64,000 nucleotides of DNA from Candidatus Dormiibacterota bacterium (GTDB lineage Bacteria; Chloroflexota; Dormibacteria; Aeolococcales; Aeolococcaceae), in NCBI GenBank assembly GCA_963709585.1, contig CAVPXI010000006.1, positions 32,001 through 96,000 of the forward strand, in the 5' to 3' direction. Below are positions 61,285 to 63,580 of this stretch, in pieces. The position numbers were made by a program, and so were the translations under genes. Position 1 is the stretch's first letter. Each line of letters starts with the position of its first letter. Under the pieces are notes generated by a model. That model did no database searches. It had not been told where the DNA came from and worked only from the letters and a program-made list of their open reading frames with translations.

Positions 61285-62169
61285 TCAGCGGGGGTTGGTG
61301 CCCAGCCTCGCCGCAGTCAGGCGCACGACGTCCTCGATGGTGTCGGCAATCTGCGCACCGGCGGCCGTGAGCGCGTCGAGCTTGTTCTGTGCACTGCCGG
61401 TGGTGCCGCTGATGATCGCGCCGGCGTGGCCCATGCGTTTGCCGGGCGGCGCGGTGCGTCCGGAGATGAACGCGATCACCGGCTTGTCGAAACCCGTGTC
61501 GCGAATCCATGCTGCGGCGGTCTCCTCGTCGGAACCACCGATCTCGCCGATGAGCACGACCGCGCGTGTCTCCGGGTCGTCGGCGAAACGCTGGAGGACG
61601 TCCGGAAAGCTGAGGCCCATCACTGGGTCGCCGCCGATGCCGACCGAAGTGGTCTGGCCCATCCCCGCCTCGCCGAGACCCTGGATCACCTCGTAGGTCA
61701 GCGTCCCGCTGCGGCCGACGATCCCCACAGGGCCGGGCGTGTTGATGTGGTTGGGGATGATGCCGACCTTGCACTGATCAGGGGTCACGATTCCGGGGCA
61801 GTTGGCTCCGAGCAATTGGTGGCCGCTGCGAATCACGAAATCGCGCGCGCGGATCATGTCGTGCACCGGGATCAACTCGGTGATGCAGACGGTCAGCTCG
61901 ATCCCCGCCGCCGCCAACTCCATGATCGCGTCCGCCGCGAATGCCGGCGGCACGAAGATTCCCGAGACATCCGCCCCGGTTGCGGCGACAGCATCGGCGA
62001 CCGTGTCGAAGATCGGCACCCCATCCTGGTCGGTACCGCCCTTGCCAGGAGAGACACCCGCGACGATGTTGGTCCCAAAGGCGCGCATCTGTCCCGTGTG
62101 GAAGCTGCCTTCGCGCCCGGTAATGCCCTGGATGAGCACGCGGCTGGATCCGTCGACAAGCACGCTCAC
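61285..62169 (-). CDS. sucD: Succinyl-CoA synthetase alpha subunit
   Basis: [34 protein letters not shown] (phospho-His). Confidence 0.96.
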
Positions 62170-62239
62170 GACGGGTCCCCGATGGGGAGGTCAGCGGCAC
62201 GAACAGAGGTGGCAGCGCCGCAGCCCACGACGCGCCCCC

Positions 62240-62367
62240 CGGTGGGGAGGGTGTGGGCGGAGGCGGGCCATCTCGCAGCCGGGGCTACCCCCCCCGGCGA
62301 GAGTGAGGGGCGGAACGGCGAAGGCGTTCCGACCCCGTGCCCGCCGTAGCCCACACCCTCCCCGCCG
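62240..62367. repeat. About 128-bp branched palindromic element between sucC and sucD
   Basis: Outer arms GGTGGGGAGGGTGTGGGC / GCCCACACCCTCCCCGCC, then GGCGGGC/GCCCGCC, and two inner hairpins TCTCGCAGCCGGGG..CCCCGGCGAGA and GGGGCGGAACG..CGTTCCGACCCC. Confidence 0.85.
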
Positions 62368-62389
62368 CGCTCAGCGCCCCCACCGCAGT

Positions 62390-63580
62390 TCATGCGCTCC
62401 CCTCCCGCCGCGTCAGCGCGACGATGGTCTCGGCCGCACCGGTCGCGGTCGTAGCCGGGACGATGCCGGCCGCCTCGAGCAACCGCCGTCCCTCCTCTTC
62501 CATGGTGCCGGTCATGCGCACCACCAGCGGCTTGGTGATGTGCAGCTGGTCCCGCGCGGCTATGATCCCGCGGGCGACCTCGTCGCCACGAGTGATGCCG
62601 CCGAAGATGTTGATGAAGACACCGCGCACCTTCGGGTCGAGGAGCACCATCTCGAGCGCGTTGCGCACCCGCTCGGCGTTGGCGCCGCCGCCGATGTCGA
62701 GGAAGTCGGCGGGCTCGCCCCCGTGTTGTTTGACGAGGTCGAGCGTGTTCATGGTCAGGCCGGCGCCGTTGCCGATGCAGCCGATGTCCCCGTCGAGGTG
62801 CACGTAGGTGAGCCCGCGCTTACGCGCCTCGACCTCGAATGGATCGTCGCCACTGCGACCGTCCTCGCCGGTCTCGTCGCGAGCGAGCTCTTCGGCGATG
62901 TCCTTGTGCCGCGAGTCGGCGTTCTCGTCGATCTCGAGCTTGCCGTCTGCGGCGACGAGCATGCCGTCCGGCGTGAGCACAAGCGGGTTGATCTCGCACG
63001 TCAACGCATCGAGCGACGTCGCGACCTCGTAGAGACGAGTGGTCAGGATCACGAGTGTGCTCACCAGCTTGGGCACCCGGTCGCGAAGCTCGGGCGCGTG
63101 CGCGAGCCCCGCAAACGCCAGCTGGCGGATCTCATACGGGTGCGGCCCGGCGAACGGATCGGGCCACAGCTTGGCGATCCGTTCGGGCGCATCCACGGCG
63201 ACCTGCTCGATCTCCATCCCGCCCGCGGCCGAGAAGATGATCACCAGGCGGCGGCGATCGCGGTCGAGCGTGATCCCGAGGTAGAGCTCGGCGTCGATGG
63301 TGAGCCCGGTCTCGCACCAGACGCTCCGCACCGGGTAGCCGCGAATGTCCATGGCCAGAATCCGCGCGGCTTCGCGCTGCGCCTCCTCGGGGGTATCGAC
63401 GACGGCGATGCCACCCGCCTTGCCTCGTCCGCCGATCGGCACCTGTGCCTTGATTGCGACGCGACCGAGCTCGCGAGCGGCCGCCGCCGCCTCCTCAGGG
63501 GTCCGCGCCAGCCGGCCCGACGGGACCGCGATCCCGGCCGTTGCGAATCGCTGCTTCGCCTGGTACTCCAAGAGCTTCAT
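62390..63580 (-). CDS. sucC: Succinyl-CoA synthetase beta subunit
   Basis: LLEYQAK, KAQV..GGRGKAGG, EINPL, GNGAGL, FLDIGGG, NIFGGI. Confidence 0.96.
   Translation of the reverse strand: MKLLEYQAKQRFATAGIAVPSGRLARTPEEAAAAARELGRVAIKAQVPIGGRGKAGGIAVVDTPEEAQREAARILAMDIRGYPVRSVWCETGLTIDAELYLGITLDRDRRRLVIIFSAAGGMEIEQVAVDAPERIAKLWPDPFAGPHPYEIRQLAFAGLAHAPELRDRVPKLVSTLVILTTRLYEVATSLDALTCEINPLVLTPDGMLVAADGKLEIDENADSRHKDIAEELARDETGEDGRSGDDPFEVEARKRGLTYVHLDGDIGCIGNGAGLTMNTLDLVKQHGGEPADFLDIGGGANAERVRNALEMVLLDPKVRGVFINIFGGITRGDEVARGIIAARDQLHITKPLVVRMTGTMEEEGRRLLEAAGIVPATTATGAAETIVALTRREGSA

Follow-up and report, generated by a model that had tools for sequence, protein, structure and literature searches.

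How can a repeat with a very stable fold persist between two operon genes whose stop and start codons are coupled by overlap? The question is raised by sucC and sucD, which encode the beta and alpha subunits of succinyl-CoA synthetase, in a 64,000-nt stretch of DNA (the window) from a Candidatus Dormiibacterota bacterium (GCA_963709585.1, contig CAVPXI010000006.1, positions 32,001 to 96,000). An earlier note, made from the sequence letters, had described a branched palindrome of about 128 bp in the sucC-sucD gap and a 75-codon open reading frame (ORF) crossing it, coupled by ATGA to sucC and by GTGA to sucD. Inverted repeats and a three-way-junction fold are indeed found in the gap, and the coordinates of the ORF and its overlaps agree in every detail. 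Our reading, to which we give a probability of about 0.7, is that the palindrome is a non-coding repeat of about 126 nt, resembling miniature inverted-repeat transposable elements (MITEs) or repetitive extragenic palindromes (REPs), and that the frame crossing it is a relay frame which preserves the coupling of the two subunits.

In the window the three reading frames, sucC, the relay ORF and sucD, all lie on the minus strand and are chained by the two overlaps. The ATG of the relay ORF shares TG with the sucC stop, and its TGA shares TG with the GTG start of sucD. SucC has full-length matches in relatives at 88–97% identity (tblastn), and the GTG start of sucD aligns with an ATG or GTG start (M-S-V-L) in 29 relatives.

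The junctions of relatives reveal that the element comes and goes. sucD is present in 41/41 genomes of the genus; 30 loci were examined, and 27 remained after L074, L088 and L089 were dropped for contig ends. Four of the 27 (L067, L072, L081 and L087) are empty sites in which sucC and sucD overlap by 4 nt (ATGA or GTGA). The other 23, that is the window and 22 relatives, are filled, with gaps of 117–277 nt. In the sister family the two genes share an ATGA overlap in 3/5 cases and are separated by 1 nt in 2/5, so the tight overlap is the older state. The empty sites are scattered over a tree of the flanking coding DNA, with 4 changes of state. The closest relative of the window, with flanks 95% identical, has a 121-nt gap with different arms, and the junction therefore turns over fast.

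Traces of the older junction remain beside the element. Compared with the empty site of L067, the right flank in L071, L068 and L083 retains the last codons of the empty-site sucC; in L085 and L077 it is the left flank that retains the old sucC tail (compared with L087 and L067). A check for target-site duplication found ATGA or GTGA on both sides and no clear duplication beyond ATGA, the side bearing the old tail varying by lineage. At either end of the relay ORF stands what looks like a copy of the old sucC-stop/sucD-start junction, one on each side of the insertion. The earlier note had spoken of a mobile repeat domesticated by a relay ORF. Its first half is borne out by a dispersed repeat whose orthologous sites may be empty or filled; given such ends, domestication fits less well than selective survival, in which insertions and indels persist only where the old signals stay in frame.

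The frame across the gap is kept open. In 23/23 filled sucC-sucD junctions a stop-free frame connects the sucC stop with a stop codon that overlaps the sucD start (22 NTGA, one TAATG). It begins at an NTG overlapping the sucC stop in 18/23, and in 4/23 at an ATG or GTG of the left arm, 8 to 35 nt past the stop, three of these four being inverted copies. The alignment of relatives' junctions that the earlier note had called for thus gives an open bridging frame in 22/22 filled sites, one of them (L068) without a usable start. Conservation of both overlaps, which it had also wished to see checked, holds for 18/23 filled junctions, the remaining 5 lacking the upstream overlap start.

A second junction behaves in the same way. 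purQ is present in 40/41 genomes of the genus, and 30 purS-purQ loci were examined. Their gaps, of 52–361 nt, contain the element, tandem copies of it or a 52-nt solo-arm scar in 30/30, where the sister family has gaps of 2–7 nt. The frame stays open in 26/30 between the purS stop and a stop codon that has a base in common with the purQ start (TGATG, TAATG or TAGTG), and in 3/30 it stops 2–3 nt ahead of the purQ ATG; both overlaps are present at 24/30. In the genome of the window the purS-purQ relay frame opens where it overlaps the purS stop (GTGA) and closes at the purQ start (TGATG), and it takes in a 185-nt spacer outside the element that is likewise stop-free. Openness persists through inversions, a duplication with a spacing of about 60 nt, an internal 42-nt deletion, tandem copies (frames of 100 and 121 codons) and the 52-nt scar. 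That scar, in L169, consists of a left and a right arm joined with the core lost; it is in phase and holds an 18-codon relay frame. In L070 a 1-nt deletion inside the element is offset downstream, and the frame still reaches the sucD TGA. Among other genera of the family, 4/7 adjacent co-directional copies have a whole-gap frame ending in NTGA on an independently predicted start.

The length of the gap follows the same rule. A frame joining both overlaps requires a gap of 1 mod 3. Total gap lengths were used because the right spacers of sucC-sucD are too diverged for alignment; the left spacers could be aligned, and show clean indels of 39, 9 and 6 nt and one of 1 nt. The distinct sucC-sucD lengths form 16 classes, 11 of them 1 mod 3, five 0 and none 2. 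The 16 classes of purS-purQ comprise 13 of 1 mod 3, three of 0 and none of 2. Pooled, 24 of the 32 classes are 1 mod 3, eight are 0 and none is 2. Rough binomial tests on distinct lengths give p 0.0085 for sucC-sucD (before the 277-nt class was added) and p 0.0001 for purS-purQ; the genomes being related, these p-values and those given below are rough and overstate the case. As a control, six stop-to-stop distances at an element-bearing convergent site leave residues of 1, 0, 2, 2, 1 and 2. On the flank tree the exact length needs 16 changes and the phase just 5. The step in gap length from 154 to 214 is explained by the direct duplication of the right-junction sequence listed in Table 1.

Copies between convergent genes provide a further control for relaxed constraint. 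The translated strand has an open arm-to-arm frame in 42/45 copies, and the opposite strand in 35/45 of these; for readings of either strand between convergent genes the figure is 25/36 (Fisher p 0.007 against the translated strand). The arm-to-arm length is a multiple of three in 39/45 translated copies versus 11/18 convergent ones (p 0.04). At a site where an A creates a stop only in inverted translated copies, TCA is found in 0/9 (one has TTA) versus 9/36, a trend as predicted that is not significant. The tests of phase and openness all point in one direction.

Several observations weigh against a relay frame maintained for coupling, besides the kinship of the genomes. Openness alone is weak evidence in DNA of 70% G+C, because a second frame of the element is often stop-free too (14/22 at sucC-sucD, 19/28 at purS-purQ). 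The 8/32 length classes of 0 mod 3 need an in-arm start 5–98 nt past the upstream stop, and have therefore no stop/start coupling at the upstream end. The copy in L068 is the most degenerate one: it lacks a canonical start before +83, and its ATGA opens a frame that continues past the sucD start. The purS-purQ frame of L162 is interrupted, the sole broken one at this junction, in an assembly that is also frameshifted in purS. A purine-rich stretch 5–9 nt before the sucD start in most junctions might give sucD an initiation of its own. On the RNA side there is a single 151-nt metatranscriptome contig, at 62050–62200, from a run whose coverage is limited to 62000–62200; it may be DNA carry-over. 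The neighbour-gene calls at the other copies, for their part, rest on a home-made codon model.

If the relay frame is used as we propose, the following order of events would account for the junction. The repeat would have landed in an ATGA junction in which the sucC stop and the sucD start overlapped, and the insertion would have yielded a start-plus-stop overlap at each side. The left ATG now opens a meaningless frame of 75 codons through the whole hairpin, and the right TGA overlaps the sucD start. Ribosomes finishing sucC could re-start at the overlapping ATG, or at the G-run resembling a Shine-Dalgarno (SD) sequence and the start codon in the left arm. While translating the relay frame they would melt a structure of about -100 kcal/mol, and they would terminate on the sucD start codon, so that the termination-reinitiation coupling of the two subunits would be maintained as at the ancestral ATGA. 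Translation might also keep the hairpin in the operon from becoming a terminator or a roadblock, and might prevent the recruitment of Rho by untranslated C-rich RNA. A scan of 61900–62700 for consensus promoters and terminators predicted no promoter and 0 terminator-like sites (a G+C-rich hairpin followed by a T run). The translation of the relay frame, the unwinding of the hairpin and the coupling of sucC to sucD are what the sequences suggest; the anatomy, the repeat family, the empty sites as well as the filled ones, and the kept phase and open frame are direct observations.

A stronger version would make the element an orientation-independent "portable coupling cassette" built for operons, able to enter the -4/-1 overlaps of SucCD and PurSQ without breaking their coupling. 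Its basis is that each arm carries an SD-like G-run and ATG(A), and that the left ATG and the right CAT lie a multiple of three apart, leaving one and the same codon phase open on either strand. We regard this version as possible and rather doubtful. If it is true, the host may now use the efficiency of the relay to set subunit ratios.

The features of the junction and of the two other copies in this genome are collected in Table 1. The core of the element is a three-way junction with an outer stem and two hairpins. A pairing between remnants of an older arm pair reaches past the 128 nt and links the last sucC codons to the region before sucD; at this junction the older arm pair encloses the intact element.

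Table 1. Features of the sucC-sucD junction in the window, and the other copies of the element in the same genome (L002 and L003 are the loci of those copies)
Feature	Position	Strand	Remarks
sucC (succinyl-CoA synthetase beta subunit)	62390-63580	minus	396 aa; stop TGA 62392-62390; from the ORF list
Relay (bridging) ORF	62166-62393	minus	75 codons, 75 aa; start ATG 62393-62391; stop TGA 62168-62166
Second in-frame start of the relay ORF (GTG)	62354-62352	minus	within the left arm
sucD (succinyl-CoA synthetase alpha subunit)	61285-62169	minus	294 aa; GTG start 62169-62167
Core palindromic element	62240-62367	minus	128 nt; three-way junction; "forward" relative to the sucC-sucD sense strand
Outer stem, left arm (5' in mRNA)	62339-62367	minus	29 nt, 86% complementary to the right arm; SD-like G-rich motif, then in-frame GTG (ATG in most relatives)
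Outer stem, right arm (3' in mRNA)	62240-62268	minus	29 nt; C-rich, complements the left arm
First inner hairpin	62307-62335 (62307-62317 / 62325-62335)	minus	best-conserved part of the family; contains the 21-mer used for the species-collection search
Second inner hairpin	62271-62302 (62271-62284 / 62289-62302)	minus	contains the C8 run
Outer, older left-arm remnant	62395-62406	minus	in the last sucC codons; pairs with 62185-62196
Outer, older right-arm remnant	62185-62196	minus	about 20 nt upstream of sucD; pairs with 62395-62406
Direct duplication of right-junction sequence	62164-62250 (62164-62190 vs 62223-62250)	minus	spacing 59-60 nt, about 20 codons
Second copy in this genome, purS-purQ	gap L002 1316-1711; element L002 1501-1628		105-codon relay frame
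Third copy in this genome	L003 1501-1627		84% identical; 4 nt after a 98-aa ORF, beside a parA-like gene

Folded as RNA, the 132-nt core reaches -99.7 kcal/mol on the sense strand (z -5.9, equalled by 0/200 shuffles) and -104.4 kcal/mol on the antisense strand (z -9.1); the entire 261-nt junction reaches -171.2 kcal/mol (z -4.8). The left arm of the window, read in the sense direction, matches the pattern of a G-quadruplex, its G3+ tracts being separated by loops of 1, 3 and 7 nt. As a family feature the G-quadruplex was rejected, since the family consensus has one loop of 13 nt and does not fit, and the G3+ tracts singled out in the earlier note found no support as a separate feature.

The length of the C8 run at 62288–62295 (G8 in the sense strand), which the earlier note had wished to see checked, is not a mis-call. 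It is covered without a gap by a contig from a run of another study (62054–62304), and it is in register across the alignment of 94 copies. The read evidence consists of Logan contigs, which are broken at the repeat, and none crosses the whole gap. Frameshifts within sucC in L073 and within purS in L162 are probably homopolymer assembly errors.

A fold of this kind could be a functional structured RNA kept by the host, such as an intercistronic stabiliser, a processing site or a protein-binding motif, with the ORF as a side effect. The element does occupy the same operon junction in 30/30 genomes of the genus at purS-purQ and in 23/27 at sucC-sucD, and its covariation is very strong. Pairing holds for 94.0% of cells in the alignment of 94 copies and for 84.9% in shuffles; both sides have changed in 29/51 pairs, which 0/500 shuffles reach; and the covariation score is 0.240, compared with 0.087 in shuffled alignments and 0.04–0.07 with slid partners. 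Typical functional RNAs tolerate G·U over A·C on the transcribed strand. Here there is no such excess (16 G·U and 21 A·C pairs), and the element is found in either orientation at one orthologous site, in sucC-sucD as well as in purS-purQ. Conversion between the arms, or template switching, could maintain the palindrome at the DNA level; such upkeep is therefore as likely as RNA function, and may operate alongside or instead of selection on RNA. Some copies are situated between convergent genes or, in another genus, upstream of divergent ones; the sites turn over, as seen in nested copies, tandem copies and a solo-arm scar. An Rfam scan of 61900–62700, with E up to 10, gave only chance-level matches to microRNA models, far below thresholds. 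An RNA function would, moreover, leave the mod-3 rule unexplained, and we consider it unlikely to be why the element is there.

The open frame and its overlaps could instead be chance in G+C-rich DNA, the repeat being a neutral selfish insertion with no selection for translation. At about 70% G+C, stop-free frames of 50–100 codons are common, and two of the three forward frames of the element are intrinsically open. The conserved Met-Ser N-terminus dictates the TGA on the sucD start, and the ATG that overlaps the sucC stop is left over from the former junction. Chance has difficulty with the 32 distinct gap lengths, none of which is 2 mod 3 and 24 of which are 1 mod 3, where the convergent controls are unbiased; with the compensated deletion of L070; with a frame that stays open through inversions, duplication, tandem copies and scar; and with convergent-gene copies that are more often closed or out of phase. 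This makes it improbable to us, and a genuine small protein encoded by the 75 codons appears hardly credible at all. The middle of the peptide (…GHGVGTPSPFRPSLSPGGVAPAAR…) is conserved among forward copies; this is a consequence of the conserved nucleotide structure, and the N- and C-terminal parts are free to vary in length and sequence. Inverted copies encode an unrelated peptide, and their frame is nonetheless open. The earlier note had judged the peptide to be nonsense, and codon usage agrees: log-odds per codon are -0.59 for 17 sucC-sucD relay ORFs, against +0.26 to +0.39 in the flanking genes, and -0.48 for 26 purS-purQ relay ORFs, with flanking gene segments overall at +0.16 to +0.39. 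G+C by codon position (0.69/0.77/0.70) is unlike that of genes, and the peptide matches no Pfam family. Because codon usage is non-coding, no Pfam family is matched and the peptide is replaced on inversion, selection, if any, looks to be on translation and not on the product.

The palindrome between sucC and sucD belongs to a dispersed, low-copy repeat family. The genome of the window (3.52 Mb, 24 contigs, 88.8% complete) has three copies, of which that between purS and purQ is 96% identical to the sucC-sucD copy over 128 nt. The orthologous sucC-sucD copy of the closest relative, L062, is just 89% identical to that of the window. The comparison of 96% within the genome and 89% to L062 suggests within-genome conversion or re-insertion. 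The 98-aa ORF beside the third copy matches no Pfam family, and gene calling gave no downstream gene at this site. In relatives this site is flanked by the 98-aa ORF and, on the other side, by a DUF503 gene, whose start lies 3–9 nt beyond the end of the crossing frame.

By BLAST, the element is found in 32/36 relatives of the genus, with 1–10 matches per genome, and as weak partial matches in 2/24 genomes of the sister family. A covariance model built on 94 distinct copies finds it in 14/31 genomes of the same family (6 genera) and in 0/109 genomes of four other families of the class. Exact matches to the core 21-mer in the species collection number 57, all of them in metagenome-assembled genomes (MAGs) of Candidatus Dormibacterota, Dormibacteraeota or Dormibacteria. 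The repeat is thus confined to one family of Candidatus Dormibacterota, from soil. Copy numbers across relatives are 1–13 per genome, and are lower bounds because the repeat breaks short-read assemblies; contigs of L074, L088, L089, L057 and L050 end in or beside the element. A search for the RAYT/Y1 transposase (PF01797) found 0 in the genome of the window and 0 in 41 genomes of the genus, its control being positive in 6/14 known genomes. A parent insertion sequence with the same ends was not found in the 88.8% complete genome of the window, which holds three full copies and short chance matches.

The surroundings of 86 copies were surveyed with 1.5-kb flanks and a home-made gene caller based on codon log-odds, which was trained on long ORFs of the surveyed loci and recovers sucC, sucD and their neighbours. 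Flanks of 270 nt had mislabelled two known purS-purQ copies as divergent, and contexts are therefore taken from the 1.5-kb survey. The surveyed copies are located 0–25 nt past a stop codon. Their sites are sucC-sucD, purS-purQ, the pair of 98-aa ORF and DUF503 gene, a few other co-directional pairs, and intervals between convergent genes. None of the surveyed copies in the genus of the window stands between divergent genes; in another genus of the family 4/20 do. These diverged copies, in L259, L263, L265 and L268, are 83–183 nt upstream of divergently transcribed genes.

Some junctions have collected more than one copy. L161 has two tandem copies, L165 has two partial copies and a full one in 87-nt steps, and L079 and L073 have several additional right-arm remnants. 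Tandem and nested copies thus accumulate at these same junctions, which looks as though newcomers enter or adjoin older copies.

If the relay reading is correct, this uncultured phylum would supply a second, independent example of a repeat that owes its survival in operons to being translated. It would offer a test bed for the passage of ribosomes across a structure of -100 kcal/mol, and for how far termination-reinitiation coupling can be stretched (52–361 nt). It would also call for caution in annotation: "hypothetical small ORFs" of G+C-rich MAGs may be relay frames instead of genes. In the parts of the literature consulted on Dormibacterota elements and on palindromic repeats with translational coupling, no description of such an element was found.

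Among known elements, MITEs and REPINs share several of its traits. REPINs are doublets of REPs that are moved by RAYT transposases and reach tens to hundreds of copies. Like these, the present element is short and non-coding, with terminal inverted repeats (29-nt arms, conserved in 94 copies) and a long stable hairpin; it lies in intergenic regions near gene 3' ends and is polymorphic in presence, with 4 empty and 23 filled sucC-sucD sites. Unlike them, it has no RAYT in 41 genomes of the genus, no parent insertion sequence in its own genome, no clear target-site duplication beyond ATGA, very few copies and orthologous positions that persist for long. Rickettsia palindromic elements and other repeats are described, in the passages available, as forming in-frame fusions to host genes (PMC3184786). 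The likeness is in a palindromic repeat tolerated through staying translatable; the difference is that no fusion is made here, since sucC ends first and a separate ORF bridges to the next gene.

Coupling by stop/start overlap (ATGA, TGATG) between genes for subunits of the same complex is described in the portions seen of PMC6728339 and PMC10666635. The ancestral sucC/sucD and purS/purQ junctions are of that type, and the ends of the relay ORF reuse the overlaps. What differs is that the overlaps are set apart here by 52–361 nt of open-frame filler with very stable structure.

The closest known case, as far as the excerpts consulted allow a comparison, is that of the MIRUs (mycobacterial interspersed repetitive units; Supply et al. 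1997, via PMC12548453 and PMC3184786). According to those excerpts MIRUs are operon-internal repeats, with a unit of 40–100 bp and tandem arrays, in which the ends of a small ORF overlap the stop and start of the neighbours at a -4 nt spacing; 4-nt direct repeats and empty sites are reported, and the repeats are thought to be tolerated because coupling is kept. The present element likewise sits between co-directional operon genes (sucC-sucD, purS-purQ), has a small ORF ending in overlaps, and shows empty and filled sites. The principle of a relay ORF in a repeat is therefore already known. The likeness is one of arrangement, and the element is from another phylum. It is a single three-way-junction palindrome of about 126 nt and about -100 kcal/mol, the window holding one 128-nt unit, and only L161 and L165 have tandem or partial arrays. 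It occurs in both orientations, and in either one the left arm supplies an SD-plus-start signal from which it could be translated; it is also found between convergent genes, and its copy number is low (1–13 per genome). The upkeep of its frame could be compared across about 30 species and two junctions, and such comparative evidence for the kept phase and openness of a meaningless frame was not met in the MIRU passages. Set beside what those passages describe, the element, the phylum and the comparative evidence are what differ.

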